Translations under genes and position numbers: made by a program
The notes under the pieces: model-generated
Seen by the model: only the letters and a program-made list of their open reading frames with translations
Database searches by the model: none
What the model was told of the DNA's origin: nothing
Part shown: positions 15,602 to 45,189 of the stretch, one piece after another
How positions within the stretch are numbered: position 1 is the stretch's first letter
How the letters are laid out: the number at the start of each line of letters is the position of its first letter
Assembly: GCF_028368995.1 (NCBI RefSeq)
Contig: NZ_JAQNDL010000001.1
Coordinates: 3,296,001 to 3,360,000 of the forward strand
Direction: 5' to 3'
DNA length: 64,000 nt
Source: Nannocystis bainbridge
Lineage (GTDB): Bacteria > Myxococcota_A > Polyangia > Nannocystales > Nannocystaceae

Positions 15602-16420
15602 TCAGGGCAGCGACGGCAGCGTATCGGTCGCGGTCTTGCTGAGCTGACGGACCGCGTGGCGCTCGTCGTGGTCGTTGCAGGCGAGCACCACCACCACCGT
15701 GATGTTGTCGTCGCCGCCGCGCTCGAGCGCCAGCTCGGTACAGACCTGCGGCAGATCCGAGTACAGGTGGTCGCGGGCCAGCGCCGCCAGCTCGTCGAGC
15801 GACACGTAGTTGGCGAACCCGTCCGAACACAGCAGGTACACGTCGCCGAGGTTGACGTTGACCGGCACGATGTCGGCCTCGACCAGCCGCTCGAAGCCGA
15901 CCGAGCGGGTGATGATGTGCTTGAGGTCGGACTCCTGCGCCTCTTCTTCGGTGATGAGGCCGGCCAGCACCTGCTCGTTGAGCCACGAGTGGTCGGTCGT
16001 CAGCTGACAGGCCATCGCCGAGCGCAGCAGATAGGCCCGGCTGTCGCCGACGTGGACCACGTAGCCGCGGTCGCCGTGGAACAGTATCCCGGTGAGCGTG
16101 GTACCCATCCCGTGGAGCGAGCGGTCCTGCTGCGCCTGGTCGTAGATCCGGGCGCTCGCCTCCGACGCCGAGGCTTGCAGGATCTCCGCGATCGCCTCCG
16201 ACCACGCCTGTTGCGGCATGCCGTGGAGACGCGCCATCCCCCGCCGTACGACCTTGTTGACGACGTCGGCGCACATCGCACTGGCATGCGCCCCGCCGGC
16301 GTGGCCACCCATGCCGTCGGCGACGAGGTACAGCCCGAGCGAGCTGTCGACGAGGAAGCTATCCTCGTTCGCCATGCGGACGCGGCCGACGTCGGTGGAT
16401 GCCCACGCGATCAAGCGCAC
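15602..16420 (-). CDS. PP2C-family Ser/Thr phosphatase
   Basis: 'TDVGRVRMANED', 'VADGMGGH', 'HVGDSRAY', 'LCSDG', 'GGDDNIT'. Confidence 0.92.
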   Translation of the reverse strand: MRLIAWASTDVGRVRMANEDSFLVDSSLGLYLVADGMGGHAGGAHASAMCADVVNKVVRRGMARLHGMPQQAWSEAIAEILQASASEASARIYDQAQQDRSLHGMGTTLTGILFHGDRGYVVHVGDSRAYLLRSAMACQLTTDHSWLNEQVLAGLITEEEAQESDLKHIITRSVGFERLVEADIVPVNVNLGDVYLLCSDGFANYVSLDELAALARDHLYSDLPQVCTELALERGGDDNITVVVVLACNDHDERHAVRQLSKTATDTLPSLP

Positions 16421-16621
16421 AGCCTGGACGATACCATGTACGGCCGCGAATCGAGACCCTTCCGTGCGACGGCCCGGGCCCGCGAAGGGGGCCGGCGGCG
16501 CAGATGCGGCGGCGCTGGCGATGCGTGAGTAAACCGACGGCTCCGGGCCGCTCCGGCGGGCGGTGCGGCAACGGAGCCAGTCCTCGGGGCCAGGTGCGGC
16601 TGGGGCCCGCTCGGGCCCGGG

Positions 16622-18169
<1,548 letters not shown>

Positions 18170-18171
18170 GG

Positions 18172-19284
18172 CTAGCGGCCCCCCTTCAGGAATTCGCGGA
18201 TCGAGTCCATGATGTCGTCCTTGCTCTTGATCTCGGAGGTCACGAGGGCGATGTTCTTGGCGAACGCGGACCGCAGGTCCTTGATGAACTGGCCCGAGCC
18301 GTAGGGCGACTCGACCTGGCCGTAGCCGAACTGGTTGCACTTGGGCAGCAGCTGCTGCTTGACCAGCTGGATGCAGGTCGCGGTGTCGTCGACCGACCAG
18401 TTGTCGCCGTCGCTGAAGTGGAACGCGTAGATGTTCCACTGCTCGGGGCTGAACTCGGCGTCGATCAGCTCGGCGCACAGCTTGTAGGCCGAGCTGATCA
18501 TCGTCCCGCCCGACTCGCGGGTGCGGAAGAAGACGTCGCGCTCGACCACCCGCGCGGTCGCGTCGTGGATGATGTAGCGCGACTCCAGCCCCTTGTACTG
18601 GCTGCGCAGCCACGTATCGATCCAGAACGACTCGATGCGGACGATCTCTTTCTGCTCGTCGCCCATCGAGCCCGACACGTCCATCATGTAGATGATCACC
18701 GCATTGGTCTGCGGGCGCGGGTCGGTGCGCCACGAGCGATAGCGGCGGTCCTCGCGGATCGGCACGATCACCGGGCGCGCCGGGTCGTACGAGCCCATCG
18801 CCACCTGGCGGCGGAGCGCGCGCTTGTAGGTCGCCTTGAAGTTGCGCAGCGACTCGGGGCCGGTGTTGCGCAGGCCGACATAGCGGTCTTTGCGGGTCTC
18901 TAACGAATGCGTGCCCTTGGGCTGGATGTTGGGCAGACCGAGCTCTTCTCCCATGATTTGAGCGAGCTCTTCGAGCGTGACCTCGACCTCGAGCGACTTG
19001 CCGCCCTCCTGCTCGCCGGCCTTGCCCGCGCCGCCCGGGCCGTCCTTGCCCGAGCCGCCGACCGGGTCGCAGGGCTCGCCGTCGCCCTGGCCGACGCCCT
19101 GGCCGCTGTTGTCGCCGTGCACGAACCGCGGGATGTTGATCTGCGGCATCGGGATGGCGACGGTGCCCTGGCCCTTTGGCGCCACCATGTCGCCGCGAGA
19201 GATGTATTTGCGCAAGTTCTGCCGAATTTTGCCGCGAATGATCTCTCGGAAGCGGCTGTGGTCCTGCTCGATGCGCGAAATCAT
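18172..19284 (-). CDS. YeaH/YhbH (DUF444) family protein
   Basis: '[17 protein letters not shown]', 'MMDVSGSM', '[10 protein letters not shown]', 'FSDGDNW'. Confidence 0.92.
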
Positions 19285-21551: not shown

Positions 21552-23398
21552 TACGACGTCGCGGGTCCGAGCGGCAGGTCGACGCGGAAGGTCGAGCCGA
21601 CGTTCGGCTCGGAGTCGAGGGTGATCGTCCCGTGGTGGGCCTGGACGATCTCGCGGGCGATGTAGAGGCCGAGCCCGAGCCCGCTGAACGAGCCGACGCG
21701 GTGGGCCCGCTCGAACGGCTGGAACAGCTTGGCGCGGGCCTCGGGGTCGATGCCGATGCCGTGGTCCTCGACCTCGATGCGGGCGGTGTCCGGGGACGGC
21801 GACGTCAGCCGCACCGTGACCGGCCGGTTCGCGCCGTACTTGAACGCGTTGCTGACCAGGTTGTCGAGCACCTGCTCGACGCGCCGCCGGTCCCACGTGG
21901 CCACGAGCGGCGGCGAGCCCGGCGGCGGCAGCTCGAGGGACAGGTCGGCGCGCGCGCGGGCGTCGTGCTCGCACAGCTGGGTGCAGAAGGTCGTCAGCAG
22001 CTCGGCGACTTCGAGCTCCTGCGGCTCGAGGAACAGCTTCTTGTGCGACAGCCGGGTGGCGTCGAGCATGTCGGCGACCAGCGAGTCGATCTTGCGGGCC
22101 TGGCGGATGATGAGCTGCAGCGCGGCGACCAGCGGCTCCTTGAGGGTCGGGTCGGAGCTCGGCGGCAGCCGGCGCAGCAAGGATTCGGCGCGCAGCAGGA
22201 TCGAGGTGATAGGGGTGCGGAGCTCGTGGCTGGCGACGGAGAGGAATTCGTCGCGCACGCCGATCGCGTCGCGCAGCACCTGCTCGGCCTGCTTGCGCGC
22301 CGAGATGTCGACCAGCGTGCCCGACATCCGCACGCCCTCGCCGGCGTAGTCGCAGAACACGCCGCCCTGGGAGAACAGCCAGCGTTCGGGCACCTGGGGA
22401 TCGCGCAGGCGGAAATCGGAGCGGAAGGTCGAGCGGGCGGCCATCGCGTCGGCGAGCGCCTTGCCGACGCGATCGCGGTCCTCGCGGTGGATGAGCCGCA
22501 GGAAATCCTCGACGCCGTGCGGCTGATCGTCGGGCGACATGCCGAGCAGGGCCTTGGTGGTGTCCGACCAGATGACCTGCCCGGTGAGCAGGTCCCAGTC
22601 CCAGATGCCCGTCTCGGCCGCGCGCATGGCCTCGTTGATGCGGCTGTACTCGCGCAGCCGGGTGCTGAGGTCGACGACGTAGCCGATGAACTGGTTCTGC
22701 CGCGGCCGCACCAGCGCGTAGCCGATCAACACCGGCACGCGGCTGCCGTCCTTGCGCACGTAGTCCTTCTCGTACGGGCGGCACCGGCCGGTGCGCAGCG
22801 CCTCCTCCATGCCCTGGTGGTCGCGCATGAGGTGCTCGGGCGCGGTGCAGCGGTCCCAGCGGAATACCCTCAGGTCGATCTCGTCGTGGGTGTAGCCGAG
22901 GATCCGCAGGTACTCGTCGGTGGCCTCGACCAGCTGCCCGTGCATGTCGCTGACGAACATGCCGACCAGCTGCGCCAGCCCGCCCGCCTTGGCCGCCTCG
23001 TAGACCGCCGTCTCGCGCAGGTTCTCGACCACGCACACGGCCCCGAGCAAGCGGCCGTCGGGCGTCAGCACCGGCCGCGCGCTCTCCCGCACGCGCAGCT
23101 GCCGGCCGTCGCGCCAGCCGAGCGCGTAGCTGTGGCCCGAGGCCCTCGCGCGCGTGCGCAGGGCGACCGCGACCGCCGTGTCCTCGCGCCCCAGCGGCGC
23201 GCCCGCCAGGGTGGCCAGCTCGTCCGCAGGGCAGTACGGCGGCGAGGCGTCCGGCGTCAGCCGCAGCAGCGCCGCGGCGTCGGCGTTGAAGGCGACGACC
23301 TGACCGTGCGCGTCGCAGACGTAGGCCGCCTGCGGCAGCGCCTCCAACAGGTCGCGGGCGCCGATCATCTCCAGGGCGGTGGCGTCGGTCGCGGTCAT
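21551..23398 (-). CDS. Multi-PAS sensor histidine kinase
   Basis: Three PAS-like domains; H-box 'ASHELRTP', N-box 'NLVSNAFKY', 'DHGIGI', 'GLGLGL'. Confidence 0.92.
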
Positions 23399-23579
23399 GG
23401 CGGCGCGACGACTAGAGTACCGCGGCGCGCCGCGGCGCGGCTGACTGCCGGGACGCCCCGACGCCCTCTGCCGCAGCCACCGGCGCGCCCTCGCGGCGGA
23501 GTCATGCGCCGGGGCGGCCGCGCGCGGACGGCCTCATCGGCAGGCGGGCGATGCCGGCGTCCGCACGCCTGCTCCGCCG

Positions 23580-24233
23580 TCACTGCCAGCAACGGGCCAC
23601 GCCGGGCAGCGTCGCCTTGACGTAGGCGCGGCGCGTGACGTCGAGGTAGTCGAGCAGCACCTCGAAGCGCCCGCACTGCAGCTCGACCCACTCCGGGCTC
23701 GGCTCGCCGACCGCCACGCAGCCCCACCGCTCGAGCTGGGCCCGCCAGTCGGCCACCCGCGCGGTCCCGGCGGCCCCATCGGCGGCCGCGATGCTGGCCT
23801 CCGCCGCCGCCACGCTGCCGGAGATCGGCTTCGGCTCGATGATCGCGTTCAGCGGCGGTGGCTCGCCCTCCGTCGCCGTCTGCAGCAAGACCACCGTCGC
23901 CGGCAGCTCCTGCAGCGGGAAGCTGCAGCCCCACTTGGTGTAGCCCGGCCGGGTCGCCGAGCACCACATCATCCGCTCGGGCTCGGCGCAGCCGATCGCC
24001 ACGTCGGCGGCCGGCCGCGACAGCGCGCAGATCGCCGCGAGCGGCTCCGCGATCATGTCCTTGCCGCACACCGGCAGCGCCGCCGGGTCGACCTCCGGCG
24101 GCGGCGACTCGGGCGGCGAGGCCGGCGGCGGCGTCTGGACCGGCGGCGGCGAGGGTCGCTCACAACCTGTCTCGAGAGACAGCATCACTACCCACCAGGC
24201 GGAGCGGCCGATCGACACGAGCCCCAAGTTCAC
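23580..24233 (-). CDS. Hypothetical Cys-containing (lipo)protein
   Basis: Hydrophobic N-terminus, 'TGC', Pro-rich linker; fills the gap downstream of xth. Confidence 0.5.
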   Translation of the reverse strand: MNLGLVSIGRSAWWVVMLSLETGCERPSPPPVQTPPPASPPESPPPEVDPAALPVCGKDMIAEPLAAICALSRPAADVAIGCAEPERMMWCSATRPGYTKWGCSFPLQELPATVVLLQTATEGEPPPLNAIIEPKPISGSVAAAEASIAAADGAAGTARVADWRAQLERWGCVAVGEPSPEWVELQCGRFEVLLDYLDVTRRAYVKATLPGVARCWQ

Positions 24234-36229: not shown

Positions 36230-37195
36230 TCACGGCTCTGCGCCGCCGAGCGCCACGATCAGCGCGCGCAGTTCGGGCGGCAGCCGGCTCTCGAAGTCGA
36301 GCTCATCCCCTGACATCGGGTGCTGGAACCCGAGCACCGCCGCGTGCAGCGCGTGGCGTCCGAGCCCCTCCGCCAGCCCACGGATCGCAGCAGGCCCGCC
36401 GAGCCCGCCGTACAGCACGTCGCCGACGATCGGATGACCGAGCATGCGGCAGTGCATCCGGATCTGGTGCGTCCGTCCCGTCTCGAGCCGGAACTCGAGC
36501 ACCGCCGCGCCGGTCAATCGCTGCAGCGTGCGCACGTGCGTCACGGCGCGTCGGCCGTCGCGCGCCTCCCACGTGAAGCGGCGGCGATCGATCGGATCGC
36601 GCGCGTGGCCCGTGCGCAGCGTCTTCTCGGCGAACGTCGGCGCATCGCGGACCACCCCGAGATAGCGGCGGCGCAGCGAATGCCGGCGGAACTGCGCCGC
36701 CAGCCCCTCTTGCGCCCGCATGTGCTTCGCCACCACCAGCAGCCCGCTCGTATCGCGGTCCAGGCGGTGCACGATCCCCGGCCGGGTCGCGTCGTTGCCG
36801 GGCAGCACCGGCAGCGACTCGGCCCCGATCCCCAGGTGGTGCAGCACCGCGTTGACCAGCGTCCCGTGCGAGTGCCCGGGACCCGCGTGGACCACCATCC
36901 CGGCCGGCTTGTCGATCACCAGCAGGTGTTCGTCCTCGAACACCACCGTGAGCGGCAGCGCCTCGGGCGTCGCGTGCAGCGGCTCGGGCGCTTGCAGCTC
37001 GAGCTCCACCTCGACCTCGGCATCGACCACGCGGGACGCCTTCAGCGCCGCCCCATCGGCCGCGCACACCTTCCCCGCCGCGAACGCGCGGGCCAGCTGG
37101 GAGCGCGTACAAGGGCTCCCTTGGCGGGCGAGTTCGGCGACGAGGGCCTGGTCGAGGCGACGCCCGATGGCGTCGTTTCCGAGGTGGAGTCGCAG
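36230..37195 (-). CDS. RluA/RluD family pseudouridine synthase with N-terminal S4-like domain
   Basis: 'DKPAGMVVH', 'GIVHRLDRDTSG', 'LETGRTHQIR', 'PIVGD', 'ALHA'; S4-like 'GRRLDQAL...TRSQL' lies upstream of GTG 37069, so the start is placed tentatively at CTG 37195. Confidence 0.88.
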   Translation of the reverse strand: MRLHLGNDAIGRRLDQALVAELARQGSPCTRSQLARAFAAGKVCAADGAALKASRVVDAEVEVELELQAPEPLHATPEALPLTVVFEDEHLLVIDKPAGMVVHAGPGHSHGTLVNAVLHHLGIGAESLPVLPGNDATRPGIVHRLDRDTSGLLVVAKHMRAQEGLAAQFRRHSLRRRYLGVVRDAPTFAEKTLRTGHARDPIDRRRFTWEARDGRRAVTHVRTLQRLTGAAVLEFRLETGRTHQIRMHCRMLGHPIVGDVLYGGLGGPAAIRGLAEGLGRHALHAAVLGFQHPMSGDELDFESRLPPELRALIVALGGAEP

Positions 37196-37204
37196 GCCCG
37201 GAGC

Positions 37205-37474
37205 CTACCAGATGTGGGTCTTGAGGCTCGCCATCGGCTTGATCACGCGGTCGACGATGGCGCGGTCGTAGTAGTTCTTGCGGAACAGCTCGGGCGTCAC
37301 GCGGCCGCGGAACAGGTCACGACCTTCCATGATCTCCTCGCCGAGGGCATCGAAGAAGTTGTCGTTGATCAGCGCCTCCTCGATCTTCTGCTTGTTGTAG
37401 AGCTGGATGTCCGAGGCGATCGCGCGGGCGAGCTGTTGCGCGCGGGCGTCGTTGTCGATGGGCGTGGCTGCCAT
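37205..37474 (-). CDS. Small conserved deltaproteobacterial-type hypothetical protein
   Basis: 89 aa with strong coding bias; 'ARAIASDIQLYN...EGRDLFRGRV' helical motif. Confidence 0.75.
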   Translation of the reverse strand: MAATPIDNDARAQQLARAIASDIQLYNKQKIEEALINDNFFDALGEEIMEGRDLFRGRVTPELFRKNYYDRAIVDRVIKPMASLKTHIW

Positions 37475-37702
37475 CCCGCGAGGATGCCACAGCGCCGCGG
37501 CCCCCGCCAAGTCGCCGCAATTTCGCCGGACGGCCTCGTAAAAGCGCCCTTTGTCCGTGATACGCGGCGGATCTCCCCTGCGCGGGCCGGCCGCCCTGGC
37601 CAGCGCCGCGGGCGGACCGCCGTCATCGGCGGGCGACCCGACGCGCTCGCCCGCTCGGCCCGCCAGGGCCACCAAAATGCCACCAAGTTTGTGGCCCTGC
37701 CG

Positions 37703-37881
37703 CGGCGCATCCTCCGCTGGCGCAGGTGAGCCGTCAACTCATCGTGGACCTACCCGCGGTCACACACGGCGCATCTCCACTGGAGCGGGGAGCCGCGCAT
37801 GGACTCGCTGTCGGGTCGGGCTACATGGGCGCTTCCCGTCGGCAGGGGGAAACTTGCAGCGCCGGCGCATCCCTGCTGGCG
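37703..37881 (-). CRISPR. Degenerate type I-E-like CRISPR repeats, left segment (4 copies)
   Basis: cggcgcatcctccgctggcgcaggtgagcc (37703), cggcgcatctccactggagcggggagcc (37767), gggcgcttcccgtcggcagggggaaac (37827), truncated cggcgcatccctgctggcg (37863); first two spacers 34 and 32 bp. Confidence 0.65.
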
Positions 37882-38018
37882 ACCTCCCGACGCTGACGGC
37901 TCGGGCGGCACTGTACACAGCGAGGGCTTACGATAGCCCTGCGCGGTGAAGCTCGCTACGGCTGCTCGTCGACGCCCGGGCCGGCGCGCGCGATCATCAT
38001 GGTACGTTCAGCGTTGGC

Positions 38019-39269
38019 ATGGCGCGGGTCCACCTTTGGCGCAGGATATCCCGGGCCGGCGTCGACTCCGGCTTGGACGAACATCTGCGGCGAAAGGTCG
38101 AGCTGACGAACAAGCTCGGCTTCACTGCGGGCGTCCTGGTGTTCACGGGAAATTCGCTGTTCTGGGGGGTCCTCGGCGCCGACGTTCGCATGGTCCTCGT
38201 CTTGTTCGCAGCGGCCCTCGCCTATGCCTCGATCCCCTTGATCAACCGCGCGCGTCGGTACGACCTCTCGCGCGGCGTGCTGACCGTTCTTCCGCCGATC
38301 TTCATCGTCGCGGCGGCTGGCATCATCAGCGACACTCCGCTCCTCAGCTTCAAGTTCGCGCTGCTGTCGGTTATCGCCGGGCCGCTCCTCGTGTTCGGCA
38401 TCGAAGAGCCGCGGAAAATGATCGCCGGCATCGTGTGGGTCGCCGTCTGTCTCGTCGGGATGGACACGATGATGCCGATCATCCCGAAGCTTTCGGGATT
38501 AGACGCAAACCCGCTCGAGGGCTCGCTCTCCGTCACGATCAACGCGGCGGTGAGTTGCCTGATTTTTGTCTCCTCGTTCGTCTATTTTCAGCGCCTCAAC
38601 CTCGCCGCAGAGAGGAAGCTGGAGGCCGAGAAGGTCAAGTCGGAGCGCTTGCTCCTCAACGTCTTGCCGCGAGAGATCGCCGATACGCTCAAAGAGTCCG
38701 AGCGAACCATCGCGGAACACCTCGAGAGCGCCAGCATTCTGTTCGCGGACCTCGTCGGGTTCACACCACTAGCGGCGAAGCTCTCGCCCGGCGCCGTCGT
38801 CGACCTCTTGAACGAGCTGTTCTCCGAGTTCGATCGGATGGCCGAGCGGCTCGGCGTGGAAAAGATCAAGACCATCGGCGACTGCTACATGGCGGCCGCC
38901 GGGGTCCCCAGGCCCACCGATGACCATGCCCACGCACTGACGCGGCTAGCGCTGGCTATGCAGGCGTTCATGACGGAGTACCGGTTCGAGGGACGGCGCC
39001 TGGCGCTGCGCATAGGGATCAACTCCGGGCCGGTGACTGCTGGCGTGATCGGCCGCAAGAAGTTCGTCTACGACCTGTGGGGCCACACGGTGAATGTCGC
39101 TAGCCGAATGGAATCGCAGGGGAGCGGCGGAGTCGTTCAGATCACCGACTCGACTCATGCGCTGATCGAGGACGATTTCGCGTGCGTGTCCGGCGGTGTC
39201 GTCAATGTCAAGGGCACTGGCGAAATGCACGTGTGGCACGTCCTCGGAGCCCGCGACGGCCGAGCTTGA
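38019..39269 (+). CDS. Membrane-anchored class III adenylate cyclase, catalytically complete
   Basis: About 6 TM helices; 'SERLLLNVLP'; 'LFADLVGFT', 'EKIKTIGDCYM', 'YDLWGHTVNVASRMES' contain all six canonical residues. Confidence 0.92.
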   Translation: MARVHLWRRISRAGVDSGLDEHLRRKVELTNKLGFTAGVLVFTGNSLFWGVLGADVRMVLVLFAAALAYASIPLINRARRYDLSRGVLTVLPPIFIVAAAGIISDTPLLSFKFALLSVIAGPLLVFGIEEPRKMIAGIVWVAVCLVGMDTMMPIIPKLSGLDANPLEGSLSVTINAAVSCLIFVSSFVYFQRLNLAAERKLEAEKVKSERLLLNVLPREIADTLKESERTIAEHLESASILFADLVGFTPLAAKLSPGAVVDLLNELFSEFDRMAERLGVEKIKTIGDCYMAAAGVPRPTDDHAHALTRLALAMQAFMTEYRFEGRRLALRIGINSGPVTAGVIGRKKFVYDLWGHTVNVASRMESQGSGGVVQITDSTHALIEDDFACVSGGVVNVKGTGEMHVWHVLGARDGRA

Positions 39270-39279
39270 CGGGCTGCGG

Positions 39280-39765
39280 CGGCGCATCCCCGCTGGCACG
39301 GGGGAGCCATCGTCCAAGACCCCCTCATCTTCCAGGCCAAGGGCGCATCCCCGCTGGCGCGCGGGGCCGGCGGCAACCTCGTCGCGGCGAACCTCCGGGC
39401 GGGCGCATCCCCGCTGGCGCGGGAGAGCCCTGACTGCGCTGCCGTCCGGCGCGTGGCAGAGGGGCGCATCCCCGCTGGCGCGGCGGCGCATCCTCGCTGG
39501 CGCGGGGAAGCCCGCACCAACGGAGAGCTGGGAGAGGGTGCCCTTCTGGCGCGGGGGAGCTGGGATCTCCACCCCGCGGCTCTTGAGCTCGTACGGCGCA
39601 TCCCCGCTGGCCCGGGGGAGCCCGCTCGGGGTGCCTGCGGATGTCGTCGAAGGAGGGCGCATCCCCATTGGGTCGTCAAGGACCAGGAGGGCGCATCCCC
39701 ACTGGCCCGGGGGAGCCAAGGTCCCGATGGCCAGCCAGGGCCTCGTGCACGGCGCATCACCACGC
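39280..39765 (-). CRISPR. Degenerate orphan type I-E-like CRISPR array, right segment (~10 repeats)
   Basis: Repeat SGGCGCATCCCCGCTGGCGCGGGGAGCC at 39280, 39341, 39401, 39462, 39484, ~39536, 39594, 39655, 39689, 39750; mostly ~61-bp period with unique ~32-bp spacers; reverse complement resembles the I-E repeat GTGTTCCCCGCGCCAGCGGGGATAAACCG. Confidence 0.8.
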
Positions 39766-40211
39766 CTGCCGACGGCGCCGGCGAGGGCGACACGCCCAAG
39801 ACGGCAATGTTGCGCCGCATCGCCACGTGTACGCGTCTATCAGCGCGACGTGATCCGCGGCCGCCCGCGAGCGGCGATAACCGGGAAATACGAGCGGGAC
39901 GACGACTTGGTTCCCGAGCCGGCGGAAGTGATGGCGCTGTGTCTTGCTGGCGGGCTCGCCGGCAACGGGGTAGCGCTGCGCCACACCGGCGTGCGCAGGC
40001 CGTAAAGGATGATCTCTGGCGAGCTGTCTTTTGGGACACCAAGTACGCTTGGGGGGCGCCAAGCGTGTTTGGCGGTCAAAACACACGGTTTAAGGCGCTA
40101 CGGCTCATGATCCGCGAGGCATCGTCGCGTCACTCTCAGGACGAGCGCGTGTCGTGATGAACGACTCGCTCACTCTCACTCTCTGAGTCTTCACCCTGTA
40201 AGGAGGATACA

Positions 40212-40811
40212 ATGTCTCTCATCGCTACCATGTTCGCACTCGCCACGACGACCACCCCGACGACGCCCAGCGCGTACGATCTTCTCGCCCGTCTGGAGGC
40301 GATGCCCGTGGTGCTCGAGGAAGTCGCGGCCGTCGTCGACCTGAACGACGGCGTGGACCTCGAGGTCAACTTCAATCTGAGCAGCGTCGGTGCGGTCACC
40401 ATCGCCGCGCATGAAGACGACGATGGCTCCGGTCACGGGCTCGTGCTCGTAGGCGCCGCCGTCGTCGCGGAGTTCGAGCTCGCAGGCGACACGGTCGTCT
40501 GGGAGACAGTCGACCTCGCTGGCTTCCGCCCGGAGCAGGTGGAAGCGGTCGCGGCGAGCATCCTGCAGGTCTGGCGCGAGGATGAGGTCGCGGAAGCGCT
40601 CGCCGCCGCGCCCACCGAGCCGACCGAAGACCGGAGCCTCAAGTGCACGGCTGCCGCCGGGATCGCCGGCGCCACGGCAGGCATCTTGATCGGCGCGACC
40701 TGCGGCATCTTCATCAAGAATCCGGTGACGTGCGGCAAGGCCGGGGGGAGCGCCTACGGGGCCGTTTCGCACTATATTTCGAACAAGTGCAACGGCGCGC
40801 AGAACGGGTGA
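40212..40811 (+). CDS. Secreted protein with acidic pro-region and C-terminal Gly/Ala/Cys-rich peptide (putative bacteriocin precursor)
   Basis: Strong RBS AAGGAGG; N-terminal hydrophobic stretch; C-terminal ~55 aa with 4 Cys; the functional call is inference. Confidence 0.6.
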   Translation: MSLIATMFALATTTTPTTPSAYDLLARLEAMPVVLEEVAAVVDLNDGVDLEVNFNLSSVGAVTIAAHEDDDGSGHGLVLVGAAVVAEFELAGDTVVWETVDLAGFRPEQVEAVAASILQVWREDEVAEALAAAPTEPTEDRSLKCTAAAGIAGATAGILIGATCGIFIKNPVTCGKAGGSAYGAVSHYISNKCNGAQNG

Positions 40812-41554
40812 GCAAGGAGGAGGGGGCTTTGGACTCGCAGCGAATTACGCCGTACAGACCCCTGCCGCCGCAGCGGTGGGGTTTCCTGGCGACGAACCAG
40901 TTCTGGTCTCGCGCGTGGCTGACGCCCATCTCCATCGTCTTCTGGGCCGGCGCCGCGGTCTTCTTCAGCCTCTTCGACCTCTTCGCCCTCGTGTGGTGGC
41001 AGCAGGCGCTGGGATTCCTGGCGTTCTACGGGGTCTGGGGCGGGCTGGTGGAGCGGTACTCCAGGAAATACCTGGCTCGCCAGCGGGTGCGGGCGCTCGC
41101 CGGCCCCCGAACCGATCCACCAGAAGGTCCCGCGGATGCAGCCGCCGAGACTACATCGAGGGCCCTCCCGGAGCCTCCTGACGCGTCGTCACGCGCCCTC
41201 GTGCCATCACGCGAGCCACGGCCAGAGCCGTCGCTCGTGGCGACGGCCGAAACCTGGGACGACGGGTACGAGAGGCTGTTCGGGCGCGGCGCAGCCGTCG
41301 CCCAGCTCGTGTCCAATGTCGCTTTCGGGCTGGCGATCTTCTACCCGAGCTGGCCGGTCAAGCTCCTGGCATTCCTGGCTCTGCTCGTTACTTCGCTTGG
41401 CCTCGGGTTGTGGCAACGCCGGAGGGCGATGCCGGCCGGTGGGGAAGTACCCCCCGAGGCACTGGAAACCGGCGCGGGGGCGCCGAACGCAGAGTTGGGC
41501 GGCGCCGGTTCCAACACGGCAGGGCGCTCGCCCGGGGCGCTGCCGCATGAGTGA
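40808..41554 (+). CDS. Hypothetical 4-TM membrane protein (putative immunity protein)
   Basis: GTGA overlap with the upstream stop; two Trp/Phe-rich TM hairpins. Confidence 0.6.
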   Translation: MSKEEGALDSQRITPYRPLPPQRWGFLATNQFWSRAWLTPISIVFWAGAAVFFSLFDLFALVWWQQALGFLAFYGVWGGLVERYSRKYLARQRVRALAGPRTDPPEGPADAAAETTSRALPEPPDASSRALVPSREPRPEPSLVATAETWDDGYERLFGRGAAVAQLVSNVAFGLAIFYPSWPVKLLAFLALLVTSLGLGLWQRRRAMPAGGEVPPEALETGAGAPNAELGGAGSNTAGRSPGALPHE

Positions 41555-41730
41555 GCTCGGCCTGTCGGAACCGATCTAACTCGACCTTGCGCATAGCGGC
41601 GTCGCCGCCGTGGGTCTTGGCGACGGTCTCGCCCCCCGGCTGTCGATCACCACAAATTCGTCAGTCCTTAGGCCGTCCCGCCGCAACCGCGCTGGTCGCT
41701 CGTGAGCGCTCAATTCCCCAGATGCAACCC

Positions 41731-42578
41731 TCAGCCGAGCGGCTCGAAGAGCTCGGCCACGGGCGAGTCGTTCGGGGCGGGGTCGTAGTCGCCGATGCCG
41801 TCGAAGCAAGCGTGAACTTCGGGAGATGAGCCACCACGCGCGCGGGCCATCCGGGCACACCCGGCGAGCAGCGCCAGCACCTCTTCGACCCATGGATCCG
41901 CGAGGTCTTCTATGCACGCCGGAAAAGCTGCGAACCCGGCGGGCACATCGACCTCGGACCTGCGATCGTCCTGCAGCTTCGCCAGCGCGACCGCGAAGTG
42001 TAGCGACACCGCGACGATCGCCGGCGCGCTGCCGTGTCTGGCGACCGCGAGCGTGCGCTCGTGGGCCCGCTCGAGACGGCTCGCAGATGCCCGCCAGTAA
42101 CGGCGGAGCAACCGCTCCGACCGCGAGCGCCGGCGGACCTGCTCGCGGTACTCCGCCTTCCAGCGCGCAACACCGGAGCTGCGCTTCCACGCCTCGACGA
42201 AGAAATCGAGGTCGGCCGGGAACTCGAGCGCGATGAGCCGCTCGATGGCCTCGTCCGCGGCGATCATCGCCGCCTGCCCGAGCGCCGAGCGCAGCGCACC
42301 CCGGCGCTTCGGAGCGACCTGGGCCACCCGGCCTCCGGCGCGCCCGGTTCGGCCGCAGCGAACGCGGCGAACATCCCTGCAGCGTCGGCGAAGCGAGCGC
42401 TCGCGACCGCGGCGAGAGCGTCACGCAGCGCGGCAACCTGGTGCGCCGTCGGCGGGACGTCGTCATCCTCGACCGCCTCGTCTGCATCGGCCGCCTCGAA
42501 GCCCGCCGCGAGCTCGCGCGAAGCGCTCGGATACGGCGTCGCTAAAAATTGCCCGCGCTCGAACAGGAGCGCCGTCAT
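41731..42578 (-). pseudogene. Probably frameshifted hypothetical gene (two overlapping ORFs)
   Basis: ORFs 42264-42683 and 41731-42327 overlap in different frames; protein-like sequence switches frame near 42330. Confidence 0.35.
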
Positions 42579-42757
42579 CACCACCAGGAGCACGTACACG
42601 CGGCCGATGAACGAGCGATGAACGCTGCGGATCTCAGCATTCGCGCATGGACTCGACGACCACGAGACCCGTCGAAATAACATGTCCCTTGGGACACGTT
42701 ATGATCCTTCTCGAGGACTCCCGACCTTCGCGGCCTTTCGATTGTCCAGCAGACCTC

Positions 42758-43954
42758 TCAGCCCACCGTCGCCGGGCTGCGGTACCCCTCCGGCTCCCCG
42801 CGCACCACCGCAGCTCGCTCCTCCGCCGTCAGCTCCGCCCACGTCGCCGCGTCCACCACGACTTGCTCCGGCGTCGCTCGCTCTTCCATTGCGAACGCCG
42901 CCTCGATCGCCGCCCCCCACATGTCGTAGGCCAGCTTGTTCGTCCCCACCACCCCAGCGATCACCTCGCCGGTCCCGACCCCGATGCGCACCCGGATTGC
43001 GCGCGCCTGGCAGGCCTCTGCGCGCTCGACTGCCGCGCGCATGCGCAGCGCCAGGTCGACCGCCGCGCGGGCTGACGGCTCGCGGCCTGACAGCCCGACC
43101 GCCGCCACATACGCATCGCCGACCGTCTTCACCTTGTCCGCGCCACGCTCCTTGCAGACCGCATCGAACGCGCTGAACGTCGCGTTGAGCACACGGACGA
43201 TGTCCTCCGCGGCTGCCTCTTCGGCCAGGCGCGTGAACCCGGCGATGTCGCACACCACGATGCTCACCTGCGGGTGACGTCGCCCCACCCCTTCGCCGCC
43301 CTCGCGCAGCGTCGCCACGAACTCGGCCGGCAGCACCGTCCCCAGCAGCGCGTCCGTGCGGCCGCGCAGCGCTCGCAGCTCGTCGCGCGTCCGCGCCGTC
43401 ACCCGCTGCGCGTAGTACGTCGCCACCGCCATCGCCGCCGCCACCAGCGACATGTTGATCTGGAAGTTGCTGCGCACGTCCTCGGGCGCCGCCCCCATCG
43501 CCGGCACCACCGCGAACGCGAAGCAGAAGCCGAGGAACGCCGCCGCGTTGAGACCTGCCACTGCCAGCGCCGTCCGCCGCCGCTCGCTCGGGAACAGCAT
43601 GAACGTCAGCACGATCACCGGCATGTACCAGTACTGCAGCCCGTAGATCGGCCCGAACAGCGACACCGCGCCGGCCGTCGAGAGCAGCGTGTACAGCGCG
43701 AAGATCACCGCCGCTGCTGCGTGACGGCCCTTCGTCGACAGCCACAGCGAGAACATCGGCGGCCCGATCCCCGCCGACAGCCCGTACACCACTCCTGTCA
43801 GCGAGCCCGCCGCGTAGATCGAGCTCAGCAGCACCGTGATCGCCGTGAAGCCGATCGCCAGCAGGCACAGCCCGTGGAGGAACACCACGTGCTGGCGCTC
43901 GAGCGGCGCCGCGTGCGGGGCCAGGCCCTGGCGCAGCAGTCGCCGGAGGCTCAC
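42758..43954 (-). CDS. Membrane class III cyclase, C1-like half (metal-binding Asp residues only)
   Basis: TM block; 'VVCDIAGFT' and 'KVKTVGDAYV' intact, but 'YDMWGAAIEAAFAME' lacks the catalytic Asn and Arg; GTG 43954 overlaps the upstream TGA. Confidence 0.85.
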   Translation of the reverse strand: MSLRRLLRQGLAPHAAPLERQHVVFLHGLCLLAIGFTAITVLLSSIYAAGSLTGVVYGLSAGIGPPMFSLWLSTKGRHAAAAVIFALYTLLSTAGAVSLFGPIYGLQYWYMPVIVLTFMLFPSERRRTALAVAGLNAAAFLGFCFAFAVVPAMGAAPEDVRSNFQINMSLVAAAMAVATYYAQRVTARTRDELRALRGRTDALLGTVLPAEFVATLREGGEGVGRRHPQVSIVVCDIAGFTRLAEEAAAEDIVRVLNATFSAFDAVCKERGADKVKTVGDAYVAAVGLSGREPSARAAVDLALRMRAAVERAEACQARAIRVRIGVGTGEVIAGVVGTNKLAYDMWGAAIEAAFAMEERATPEQVVVDAATWAELTAEERAAVVRGEPEGYRSPATVG

Positions 43955-45189
43955 GGCGCGCGCCCTGCCTTGCGTGCTCCGCGGACGAAGTACGTCTTCA
44001 TCGCCCCCTTGCCCTTGATCTCCACCCCTTCGCGCCCGCTGCACTCGAAGCGATGGTTGATCTTCGCGAACGTCAGCGGCGACACGTGGACCTCGCCTGC
44101 CAGCCCGTGCATCTCCATCCGCTGGGCCGTGTTGACCGTATCGCCCCACAGGTCGTACGTCGGTCGCACCTGCCCGATCACCCCTGCGACCACCGGCCCC
44201 GAGTTGACCCCGATGCGCACCGCGATCCCCGGCGTCGCCGCGAACTCGTCGCGCAGCGCCAGCCCCAGCGCCACCAGCACCTCCGCGTGGTCCGGGCGGT
44301 ACACCGGCAGCCCGGCCGCCGCGACGAAGCTGGTCCCCGTCGTCTTGATCTTCTCCGCCCCGAACTCGGCGCAGCGGCGGTCGATCGCGGCGAACACCGC
44401 GTGGAGCCGGGCCAGGTACGCCTCTGGCGTCTGGCCCTCGGCCGGGCGGTCGAGCCCGATCACCCGGCAGAACAGCACCGACGCGTCGCCCTGGCGCTCC
44501 GCGATCTCCTGCTCGCCCGCTTGCAGGCGCAGCCCGATCTCCTCCGGGAACACGCTGCGGAGCAGCCGCTCCGACTTCGCCCGCTCGTGCTCGAGGTCTG
44601 CCGCGGCCATCGCGTTGAACGAGCGCGAGCCGTAGCCGACCAGCAGCGTGATCGCCACCAGCAGCCCCTGATGCAGGTACTGGTTGGGCCCGTACTGGGC
44701 CACGCGCCGGGCCAGGTCGCCGTCGAGGTCCCAACCGTAGACCAGCACTGCCAGGCACGTCGAAGCTGCCAGCGCCGTGGCCAGCGCCGCTGTCGGCTCG
44801 CGGCTGGGGAACAGCAGGAACGGCAGCGCCGCCACCAGGATCAGCATGAAGAAGTTGCCGTAGTCGAGCCCGAGGGTCCACGAGCCGACCACGATCGAAG
44901 TCATCACCGCGACGTGGAACACCAGCGCCGCGTCGCGCGGGCGGCCGCGGGCGTGCAGCGCGAACACGGCTCCCAGGCCGCCGACCGTGAGCCCGAGGTG
45001 GGCCAGGAGCGCCGGGTCGAGCGGCCGGCCGGTGCCCATGTGACCCGCGCAGGCCATCACGATCCCGAGCAGCGCCAGCCCGTTGAGCAGGCGGATCCGC
45101 TGACCATCCTCTCGGGACATGTCCTCGCGGACACCCGCCGCGACGGCCCGCGACAGCGCCGCTCGCACCCGCAGGCCCGCGTTCGTCAC
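43951..45189 (-). CDS. Membrane class III cyclase, C2-like half (substrate and transition-state residues only)
   Basis: TM block; 'SERLLRSVFP'; 'VLFCRVIGL' and 'KIKTTGTSFV' lack both Asp; 'YDLWGDTVNTAQRME' intact. Confidence 0.85.
   Translation of the reverse strand: MTNAGLRVRAALSRAVAAGVREDMSREDGQRIRLLNGLALLGIVMACAGHMGTGRPLDPALLAHLGLTVGGLGAVFALHARGRPRDAALVFHVAVMTSIVVGSWTLGLDYGNFFMLILVAALPFLLFPSREPTAALATALAASTCLAVLVYGWDLDGDLARRVAQYGPNQYLHQGLLVAITLLVGYGSRSFNAMAAADLEHERAKSERLLRSVFPEEIGLRLQAGEQEIAERQGDASVLFCRVIGLDRPAEGQTPEAYLARLHAVFAAIDRRCAEFGAEKIKTTGTSFVAAAGLPVYRPDHAEVLVALGLALRDEFAATPGIAVRIGVNSGPVVAGVIGQVRPTYDLWGDTVNTAQRMEMHGLAGEVHVSPLTFAKINHRFECSGREGVEIKGKGAMKTYFVRGARKAGRAP

Follow-up and report, generated by a model that had tools for sequence, protein, structure and literature searches.

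An adenylate cyclase gene between the repeats of a decaying, orphaned type I-E-like CRISPR array in Nannocystis bainbridge

The question raised by this locus of Nannocystis bainbridge is how an intact adenylate cyclase gene came to stand between two clusters of one CRISPR-like repeat, and whether the repeats do anything for it. We analysed the locus within a window of 64,000 nt, i.e. the whole stretch of DNA under study, to which all the coordinates below refer. The original prediction described the gene as embedded in a degenerate type I-E-like array and offered two explanations: either a whole gene had been captured into an array, by aberrant integration or repeat-mediated recombination, or the repeats had been exapted as insertion sites or RNA-processing signals.

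One 29-nt repeat family flanks the gene on both sides, on the same strand and in a 61-nt register, with 3-4 degenerate copies on the left (37703-37884) and about 10 on the right (39280-39779, minus strand). This agrees with the copies predicted before and after the gene, four and about ten respectively, and the first copy on the right does begin 10 bp past the stop codon (stop codon at 39267-39269, repeat from 39280). As a background for the repeat scores, 5912 random positions of the window were scored against the consensus: a score of 25 was reached by none of them, 23 by 0.05%, 22 by 0.3%, 20 by 4.3% and 18 by 18%. Left copy 1 (37703-37732, minus strand) is identical to the consensus at 27 of 29 positions with gaps allowed, contains a 1-nt insertion and scored 14.1 bits in nhmmer (genome-wide rank 9); it is the trailer-most copy, provided that the two clusters represent a single array. 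Left copy 2 (37767-37795, minus strand) matches at 25 of 29 positions (14.9 bits, genome-wide rank 8). Left copy 4 (37863-37884, minus strand) matches at 22 of 29 positions, only in its first ~19-22 nt as read on the plus strand, and it lacks the canonical repeat's 5′ end; its nhmmer match, 37864-37881, corresponds to profile positions 2-19 (11.6 bits, genome-wide rank 11). On their scores against the random-position background, we considered the copies at 37703, 37767 and 37863 as real. Left copy 3 (37827-37855, minus strand) is very degenerate (20 of 29, equalled by 4.3% of the random positions), was missed by the profile search of the genome and rests mainly on its 60-nt register after copy 2. 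A candidate fifth left copy at 37924 was discarded, its 18 of 29 being the level of 18% of the random positions.

The copies of the right cluster begin at 39280, 39341, 39401, 39462 (22 nt only), 39484, 39533 (3′ half), 39594, 39655 (5′ half), 39689 and 39750 (weak), and their spacings are, in order, 61, 60, 61, 22, 49, 61, 61, 34 and 61 nt, three of them (22, 49, 34) being shortened; those of the left cluster are 64, 60 and 36 nt. Eight of the 12 within-cluster spacings are therefore 60-61 nt and one is 64 nt, and the exceptions (22, 34, 36 and 49 nt) are read as deletions. In the right cluster the 28-nt consensus matches six places with at most three mismatches, and it matches none in 100 dinucleotide shuffles. 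As an independent test, a profile made from six right-hand copies only was searched against the whole 11-Mb genome: the left copies ranked 8th, 9th and 11th (E 0.47, 0.81 and 5), with one unrelated match among them. The left copies therefore align with the right-hand profile; two independent sets of dispersed repeats are also contradicted by blastn-short, which found no repeat-like match of at least 17 nt in the rest of the 11-Mb genome, so that the repeat is unique to this locus. The spacers gave no significant similarity to their own genome (best E 0.002), and protospacers sought in phages for both clusters reached E values of 0.1-0.6 at best, which is chance level. Clustered same-strand repeats of ~29 nt with a palindromic core, a unit of ~61 nt (29 + 32) and non-repeated spacers, all observed here, are the features of a CRISPR array.

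The core of the consensus is CCCCGC TGGC GCGGGG, and by its similarity to arrays of related genomes the repeat family can be assigned to type I-E. In G061 the repeat equals the consensus at 24 of 26 positions (2 differ), and two co-oriented arrays enclose genes for Cas3 HD, Cas7e, Cas5, Cas6e and I-E Cas2, with family matches to PF09344 for Cas7e (E 4.6e-96), PF08798 for Cas6e and PF09707 for I-E Cas2. G064 and G065 each have a Cas7e match within ~4 kb of an array matched by the same repeat profile, with a spacing of 61 nt among the matches listed. On plasmids, the best match precedes an annotated type I-E cas3-casA-casB-cas7e-cas5e-cas6e operon by 1.26 kb. A degenerate I-E-like array is thus borne out, both by the near-identical repeat beside I-E cas genes in relatives and by mutations in all the copies here, and, as had been proposed, the canonical I-E orientation corresponds here to the minus strand, antisense to the cyclase gene.

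No trace of the machinery was found in the genome itself. Cas1 (PF01867), Cas6e (PF08798) and Cas7e (PF09344) have no match in the assembly (90.5% complete, 5 contigs), and the 84 ORFs found at the cas locus of G061, all used as tblastn queries, gave no cas remnant in the genome, only array-to-array matches. No cas I-E locus sharing the repeat was therefore detected in this genome, where, at 90.5% completeness, a locus in unassembled DNA is possible in principle; Cas7e occurs in 6 of the 73 genomes of the order and in none of the 11 of the genus. The expected leader site of a minus-strand array is a non-coding stretch (39780-40211) with no recognisable leader and no coding signal. Its pairwise similarity to the G061 leaders was no better than that of shuffles, and two leader motifs had no match in the window. 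We also built a leader profile from four arrays in three related genomes, in which the leader is conserved; among its 389 genome matches (E up to 1000) none lies at the locus, and the leader is absent by profile at both candidate positions, the right flank and 37946-37963. The leader-end-like motif on the minus strand at the latter position has a score that was reached by 15 of 500 shuffles for leader A and 44 of 500 for leader B, and it was dropped as evidence.

The repeats are decayed as well. The exact 16-nt hairpin core of the consensus is kept in none of the ~14 copies, each of which differs from the consensus; for comparison, G061 has five exact copies of the queried 24-mer of the repeat. 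Loss of hairpin structure is only partial, since GC-rich hairpin folds persist, on either strand, in several copies (-15.7 kcal/mol for the copy at 39280). An Rfam scan of 36500-41000 (E up to 1) returned no family. Between 37400 and 40300 no promoter-like site was found and three terminator-like sites were, one at the array's left edge (37695-37679, minus strand) and two, overlapping, inside the cyclase CDS. In summary, both the cas genes and the leader of a functional I-E locus are missing from what was searched, and the locus is the relic of a type I-E array, orphaned and decaying.

The cyclase gene (38019-39269, plus strand) is intact and encodes a membrane-anchored class III adenylate cyclase of 416 aa. 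Its PF00211 match covers residues 233-408 (E 5.8e-57; 192.7 bits against a curated cut-off of 21.9), and PDB 7yzi, 'Adenylate cyclase', matches residues 42-412 (E 3.8e-63). Hydrophobic segments between residues 46 and 190 form the membrane domain, in which a MASE7 match is weak and below cut-off. The catalytic motifs FADLVGF (starting at residue 242), KIKTIGDCYM (KIKTIGD at 282, IGDCYM at 286), YDLWG (351) and VNVASRME (358) align with C1/C2 of the mammalian AC9. All six catalytic residues are present, which in class III cyclases are the two metal-binding Asp, the substrate-specifying Lys and Asp, and the transition-state Asn and Arg; the protein is a class III cyclase with six transmembrane segments (6TM) of the Rv1625c/Cya-like kind. 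The gene has a dN/dS of 0.16-0.18, i.e. it is under purifying selection. Its GC content is 63.5% and its GC3 0.84, against a GC3 of 0.89-0.97 in the neighbouring core genes, in keeping with the greater use of A/T-ending codons that had been noticed.

We also considered a Pycsar system and rejected it: the general Pfam domain has an E value of 5.8e-57 and the PycC models one of only 4.8e-13, no effector ORF stands beside the cyclase, whose neighbours are repeats, and the adjacent proteins have no PADLOC match. Two observations stand by themselves. A metatranscriptome contig covering 38315-38536 lies inside the cyclase, carries no strand information and was not taken as showing transcription. 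Two more class III cyclase genes are found 3.5-6 kb to the right, a coincidence for which a chance arrival in a relic does not account.

The gene has close relatives in two related genomes only, at other loci. The nearest copy (G007:C2:328449-329789) has 89% nucleotide identity over window positions 37941-39285 (blastn), lies at an unrelated locus and is frameshifted by a 2-nt deletion. In G001 an intact copy, 77% identical and under the same purifying selection, occupies a third locus; the remaining eight genomes of the genus have only paralogs at ~68%. Neither the G007 nor the G001 copy has the repeat nearby, and it is also missing from all 105 loci that encode more distant relatives of the cyclase. 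The GC content of 63.5% is the same in this gene and in the G007 copy, therefore the low GC is a property of the gene itself, not a sign of recent foreign origin. By these comparisons the cyclase is a native, accessory, roaming gene of the lineage.

Both array and cyclase lie in a strain-specific stretch of 5.2 kb (37577-42765) between two synteny blocks, together with 2-3 unknown genes. On the left, five genomes of the same genus show alignments of 84-95% that end between 37529 and 37576, in three of them at 37576; on the right, synteny resumes only from ~42766, and there the matching DNA is at a distant locus in each of the five genomes. The products of 40212-40811, 40643-41554, 41576-42487 (minus strand) and 37205-37675 (minus strand) match nothing in Pfam, NCBIfam, PADLOC or PHROGs. 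Inside this stretch, the cyclase cassette proper extends from 37945 to 39274 (plus strand) and consists of ~75 nt of upstream sequence, the CDS and 5 nt past the stop codon; the homology with the G007 locus ends at 39274, and 5 nt of spacer separate the cassette from the first full repeat on the right. On the left, the gene does stand next to the truncated copy at 37863, as predicted, with ~60-62 nt of unrelated DNA (37885-37944) between this copy and the cassette; these have no alignment to the relative's cyclase locus, no significant match elsewhere in the genome and no coding signal. The junctions show no inverted, direct or terminal repeats.

Both junctions are also found in short-read contigs from separate assemblies of three soil-metagenome runs of one study, which may include the source sample of the genome and are hence not fully independent. 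The left junction is covered by contigs matching 37741-37933 and 37854-38004 with no differences and 37622-37939 with one, the right junction by a contig matching 39133-39384 with seven, and a further contig matches 37908-38636 (within 0-7 differences); stretches not covered by any contig carry no weight either way. Among the contigs of four runs there is none in which the two clusters are directly joined. Exact-match scans with one spacer each found a right spacer in no metagenome contig and a left spacer in no genome contig. A form without 39493-39851 is suggested by one X1 contig, which has only 20 nt on one side and was set aside.

We consider it probable that an accessory cyclase cassette landed in a dead, orphaned I-E array by illegitimate recombination and that the repeats are now inert. 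Precisely, the array would have lost its cas genes and leader, after which neither processing nor extension was possible, and point mutations together with small deletions would then have accumulated in it. The lineage's own accessory gene pool would have supplied a 1.4-kb segment, namely one 6TM class III adenylate cyclase gene with ~75-135 nt of its own upstream region, which entered the dead array. The most likely route is illegitimate recombination, either non-homologous or through microhomology, while rearrangements in an unstable chromosomal region were creating the strain-specific junction; one repeat may have lost its end in the process, and the following spacer almost its whole length. 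Here, as at its other loci, the cyclase would work as a membrane-anchored homodimer making cAMP, probably expressed from its own upstream region, and the repeats around it would do nothing. We infer this order of events, since no pre-insertion allele, i.e. the uninterrupted array for which the original prediction suggested a comparison with related genomes, was found in relatives or metagenomes; the recombination mechanism, the expression of the cyclase and its product are inferred likewise. Several points tell against an insertion into a relic, among them the hairpins still formed, the genome completeness of 90.5%, the lack of a pre-insertion allele and the two further cyclase genes to the right. 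In addition, a random hit on an array of ~0.8 kb in 11 Mb is a priori unlikely, an argument weakened, yet not removed, because the case was selected for its oddness; and the tight right junction, 5 nt before a full repeat, would also be expected from a repeat-directed process.

The alternative that survives best, which we regard as unlikely, is that two co-oriented arrays once flanked a cas operon, so that the cassette sits where the operon was deleted and not in the position of a spacer. It has a precedent in the arrangement of G061, and it draws on the copies with higher coordinates being more degenerate in both clusters and on the alignment of the minus-strand motif at 37946-37963 to the final 20 nt of the leaders in G061. 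However, this motif overlaps a segment that can also be aligned to the upstream region of the relative's cyclase and would put the first repeat 46 nt, not 61, from the next; the leader-end profile misses 37940-37963, and the four-array leader profile has no match at the locus. Moreover, the 20 kb examined in G064 and G065 show an array on a single side, and there is no cas remnant between the two clusters.

A capture directed by the array itself, whether by Cas1-Cas2 mis-integration, by homologous recombination through a repeat in the donor or by an array-targeting transposon, is very hard to credit. The right end of the cassette at 5 nt from a full repeat and its left end near another one are what suggest it, and Tn7-like transposons targeting CRISPR arrays exist in cyanobacteria, according to passages of PMC11837452. 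Integration by the CRISPR machinery is contradicted by the flanking repeat on the left, which is truncated and not duplicated, by the ~60-62 nt of unrelated DNA between it and the cassette and by the genome in which no cas genes were detected; repeat-mediated homologous recombination is contradicted by the relatives' cassettes, neither of which has a repeat nearby. As for a transposon, the cyclase is the only ORF of the insert, the junctions are without repeats and the ORFs scanned in 35.2-47.1 kb gave no transposase or integrase family match, whereas the array-targeting Tn7-like elements come with transposase genes and enter spacers at a fixed position, as described in the same passages (PMC11837452). 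Of the gene capture originally proposed, only the weak form, an aberrant or illegitimate recombination, is thus retained.

Equally hard to defend is a co-option of the decayed repeats by the cyclase, either as 3′ stem-loops acting in mRNA stability or termination, or by giving rise, from the former array strand, to an antisense RNA that regulates the gene. The hairpins still formed on either strand, the first repeat 10 nt past the stop codon and the canonical array strand antisense to the cyclase would all fit it. On the other hand, stem positions vary among the copies, as under neutral decay; the hairpins are not followed by T-runs, and the terminator scan lists none in the array; and no leader or promoter was found for an antisense transcript. 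The relatives' genes are without such repeats, yet the intact G001 copy is equally under purifying selection. Exaptation as insertion sites or RNA-processing signals is likewise unsupported, as no Cas6e was found and no copy has the consensus hairpin, and as the repeat flanks no other gene in the genome. Finally, a misassembly that joined the cyclase into the array is extremely improbable, since the short-read contigs bridge both junctions of what is a repeat-rich locus at a synteny break.

With the cassette taken as a late arrival in a dead array, the locus is a snapshot of the death of a CRISPR locus, with cas genes and leader gone, repeats mutated and spacers shortened, and dead array DNA would be a neutral site for the establishment of an accessory gene. 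It is also of relevance for annotation, as array finders may miss the locus or call two short arrays, and for estimates of how long orphan arrays persist. No new mechanism is indicated; the position of the cyclase, an ordinary signalling enzyme, appears to be a by-product of genome plasticity. A role for the relic repeats, as landing pads or recombination hot spots for accessory cassettes in these highly plastic myxobacterial genomes, or as hairpins shaping the 3′ end of the cyclase mRNA or its antisense regulation, is very improbable; if true, it would mean that CRISPR repeats were co-opted for ordinary gene regulation.

Compared with known systems, the I-E loci of the same family (G061, G064 and G065) and that of the Streptomyces albidoflavus plasmid NZ_CP108380.1 likewise have a 29-nt repeat, a CCCCGC-N4-GCGGGG core and a 61-nt unit. 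Unlike the window, they have a full cas operon beside the arrays (G061 and NZ_CP108380.1) or a Cas7e match ~4 kb off (G064 and G065), and in the three family genomes a conserved leader precedes the arrays. Isolated CRISPR arrays, a class described in passages of PMC5294841 and PMC7145637, are closer: like the locus, they have a recognisable subtype, regular spacing and unique spacers with no cas genes detected in the genome. The locus is, however, more decayed than arrays called by software, with no consensus copy, four shortened spacings and no leader found, and it additionally holds a complete, selected, non-mobile cellular gene. Arrays broken by insertion sequences or Tn7-like transposons share with it the foreign DNA between the repeats of one array, but the insert here is a single signalling gene with ragged junctions, and neither transposition genes nor defined ends were found in it. 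The protein, in turn, has the same architecture as the Rv1625c/Cya-type cyclases (class IIIa, 6TM plus one catalytic domain; PDB 7yzi), i.e. an N-terminal hydrophobic domain followed by PF00211; it is an ordinary member of this type, and its genomic location alone is odd.

We consider the locus, with good confidence, to be an orphan, decaying type I-E CRISPR array in a plasticity zone, which would have been split by the illegitimate insertion of a roaming accessory cassette carrying the adenylate cyclase gene. In the window genome (11.05 Mb, GC 71.5%, 5 contigs, completeness 90.5%), the plus-strand repeat GGCGCATCCCCGCTGGCGCGGGGGAGCC gave 6 matches at ≤3 mismatches to the right of the cyclase gene and 0 in 100 shuffles. 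By repeat finding, profile search and a register table, the right cluster (39280-39779) was assigned about 10 copies, partial ones included, spaced by 61, 60, 61, 22, 49, 61, 61, 34 and 61 nt. To the left, copies at 37703, 37767, 37827 and 37863 (spacings 64, 60 and 36 nt) were identical to the consensus at 27, 25, 20 and 22 of 29 positions, respectively, the match of the last being confined to its first 19-22 nt. Among 5912 random positions of the window, a score ≥25 never occurred, whereas scores ≥22, ≥20 and ≥18 occurred in 0.3%, 4.3% and 18% of cases; a candidate further copy at 37924 (18/29) was hence at chance level and left uncounted. A profile built from six right-hand copies alone and run on the whole genome ranked left copies 8, 9 and 11, with one unrelated match among them, and no other locus of the genome carries the repeat. 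Because most of the copy scores exceed the random background, the right-only profile recovers the left copies and the repeat is unique to this locus, we infer that both clusters belong to one repeat family, as the original prediction had it in placing the same repeat before and after the cyclase gene.

The minus-strand reading of the repeat, GGCTCCCCCGCGCCAGCGGGGATGCGCCG, is 29 nt long, with a 6-bp GC stem, a 4-nt loop and 32-nt spacers. This format is that of type I-E, comparable with the Escherichia coli I-E repeat; no Rfam family matched the repeat. A pattern search across the 73 genomes of the order found 12 matches at 2-3 mismatches in G061, which shares the window's family but belongs to a different genus; the remaining ten genomes of the window's genus had no match. 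G061 carries two arrays, of ~38 and ~30 units, on either side of a cas operon encoding Cas3 (HD and C-terminal domains), Cas7e (PF09344, E 4.6e-96), Cas5, Cas6e (PF08798) and I-E Cas2 (PF09707). In each of two further genomes of the family, G064 and G065, a Cas7e match lies ~4 kb from an array found with the same repeat profile. When plasmids were searched with the right cluster, the best match covered two and a half units of repeat and spacer; it is on the Streptomyces albidoflavus plasmid NZ_CP108380.1, 1.26 kb upstream of an annotated type I-E operon (cas3-casA-casB-cas7e-cas5e-cas6e). Like repeats thus adjoin I-E cas genes in G061, G064, G065 and the Streptomyces plasmid, which bears out the I-E assignment made originally; the antisense orientation proposed with it (array strand minus, cyclase plus) was also right.

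The G061 system may itself be decaying: its cas3 (L024, a stretch of G061:C30, 15784-18480) is made of two adjacent stop-to-stop frames, 15784-17493 and 17494-18480, with an in-frame stop, and both arrays hold many variant repeats. Past the last clear repeat of its second array there is a 325-aa ORF of high GC3 with no Pfam match (G061:C30; L025 7580-8830), and a lone repeat-like hairpin with 4 mismatches occurs ~1.3 kb further along; the two may reflect chance or another gene beside repeat debris.

The window array is a relic. Cas1, Cas6e and Cas7e had no match in the window genome (90.5% complete), and tblastn of all 84 ORFs of the G061 cas region against it (E ≤10) returned only translated repeats matching the window array; across the order, Cas7e is present in 6 of 73 genomes, none of them among the 11 of the genus. 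A leader of ~60 nt, common to four arrays of G061, G064 and G065, ends in CACGCAGA immediately before the first repeat, and it was not found beyond the right cluster or elsewhere at the locus by pairwise alignment, motif search and leader profile. The exact 16-nt hairpin core of the consensus, present in exact copies in G061, is in no window copy. Substitutions vary between copies and four spacings are shortened; several copies still fold, therefore decay is incomplete. No coding signal was seen in the frame plot across either cluster or in the 432 nt to the right.

In alignments of the window to five genomes of the same genus, homology (84-95%) is lost at 37529-37576, with three of the five extending to 37576; this point lies ~100 nt upstream of a small minus-strand gene. 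It resumes at ~42766, with DNA that in those five genomes is >2 Mb away. Besides the two repeat clusters and the cyclase between them, the intervening 5.2 kb contain 432 nt of non-coding DNA along with two or three genes, members of multi-copy families with 70-78% matches at several loci; no transposase or integrase was found among the ORFs scanned around the locus. Within this stretch, 40212-41554 (plus) has 70-74% nucleotide identity to several loci in each same-genus genome. It holds a 199-aa ORF, acidic in its N-terminal part and ending in a hydrophobic tail rich in Gly and Cys, and after it, in a different frame, a 303-aa ORF that has hydrophobic segments. No match to Pfam, NCBIfam, PADLOC or PHROGs was found for either; a secreted peptide and its membrane partner may be encoded here. 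At the left array edge we also observed an inverted repeat (37656-37707; 20-nt arms, 80% complementary) and a terminator-like hairpin (37695-37679, minus) upstream of the small minus-strand gene 37205-37675. The 127 nt from the synteny end to the first repeat (37577-37703) have many weak genome-wide matches (72-100% over 16-90 nt); a dispersed GC-rich motif or low sequence complexity may account for them.

Close copies of the cyclase were found, among 40 relatives, only in two genomes of the genus, G007 and G001; in the named genome collection, the only full-length relatives are from Nannocystis pusilla (91% amino acid identity) and Nannocystis punicea (76%). The G007 copy (C2:328449-329789; minus strand, 7450-8790 of its locus L016) has 89% nucleotide identity and a frameshift from the loss of 2 nt at nucleotide 597, being either a pseudogene or a sequencing error. 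The stretch homologous to that locus opens at ~37945, ~75 nt ahead of the start codon, and closes at 39274, 5 nt beyond the stop. The copy in G001, intact and with 77% identity, lies within a 2.4-kb insert whose flanking blocks are 780 nt apart in the window genome. No repeat was found at the G007 or G001 cyclase locus, nor at 105 metagenome or genome loci encoding more distant relatives. Since close copies are few, all three in different neighbourhoods, and none has repeats outside the window, the cyclase is an accessory gene of the genus that has been repeatedly relocated.

As the G061 arrays flank their operon and are co-oriented, the window clusters could instead be two arrays, with the cyclase occupying the former site of a cas operon. 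A leader remnant was therefore sought between the cyclase and the left cluster. A minus-strand motif there, at 37946-37963, resembles the last 20 nt of the leader, but 3-9% of shuffles reach its score, it goes undetected by the leader profiles and it lies partly in DNA homologous to the cassette; moreover, for G064 and G065 the retrieved DNA shows an array on a single side. We regard two arrays as unlikely; if there were two, the locus would still be a dead I-E system holding an unrelated gene.

At the left junction, only ~19-22 nt of the copy at 37863 still resemble the repeat, and they are followed by ~60 nt before the cassette homology, for which searches against the relative's locus and the own genome gave no source. 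At the right, the gap between this homology and a complete repeat is only 5 nt. Because the left repeat loses its end and no repeat duplication, target-site duplication or terminal inverted repeat was found at the junctions, their signature appears to be that of illegitimate recombination with a small deletion. It differs from those of spacer integration, transposition and repeat-to-repeat homologous exchange, and the capture of the gene by the array, as originally proposed, is not supported; co-option of the repeats, proposed as the alternative, is likewise unsupported.

As to misassembly, separate short-read assemblies reproduce both joins. In three soil-metagenome runs from a single study, contigs that differ from the locus at 0-7 positions span both junctions (37622-37939, 37741-37933, 37854-38004, 37908-38636 and 39133-39384); these runs may include the source sample and are not independent proof of the organism. 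In one low-depth metagenome contig (run X1), 39492 is followed directly by 39852, which leaves out 359 nt of the right cluster; with only 20 nt on one side of the joint, it does not suffice to establish a shorter allele.

The cyclase ORF (38019-39269) specifies a 416-residue protein whose hydrophobic N-terminal half precedes a cyclase domain of class III (PF00211, E 5.8e-57, residues 233-408). Its best full-length structural relative is 7yzi, a bacterial membrane adenylate cyclase (E 3.8e-63, residues 42-412). All the catalytic motifs are present and align with mammalian AC9; their residues are presumably the two metal-binding aspartates, the ATP-selecting lysine/aspartate pair and the asparagine/arginine pair. 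Compared with the G007 (89%) and G001 (77%) copies, dN/dS was 0.16 and 0.18, respectively. GC (63.5%) and GC3 (0.84) are below those of neighbouring genes and identical in the relative's copy, so low GC is a property of the gene. PADLOC cyclase models match weakly (E 4.8e-13) and there is no effector gene, hence we did not regard the cyclase as a defence system (Pycsar). A metatranscriptome contig (38315-38536) falls within the gene, which is no proof of transcription. Two further class III cyclase genes (42758-45189, minus) lie 3.5-6 kb to the right, beginning exactly where synteny with relatives resumes; the one at 43951-45189 (minus) has the same membrane-plus-cyclase architecture and ~69% nucleotide identity to the embedded one over part of the catalytic domain.

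A narrow literature search, which cannot exclude such a case, found no description of a non-mobile cellular gene within a decayed array. Orphan arrays lacking cas genes have been described as a class (PMC5294841, PMC7145637). Arrays interrupted by mobile elements are also already known, among them those with a Tn7-like transposon family that is reported to insert at a fixed position in the spacers of CRISPR arrays (PMC11837452). The I-E operon of NZ_CP108380.1, with no cas1 among the genes listed, has an IS5-like transposase gene between cas6e and cas2e (22819-23589 of the plasmid stretch L137); here it is a cas operon that a mobile element interrupts.
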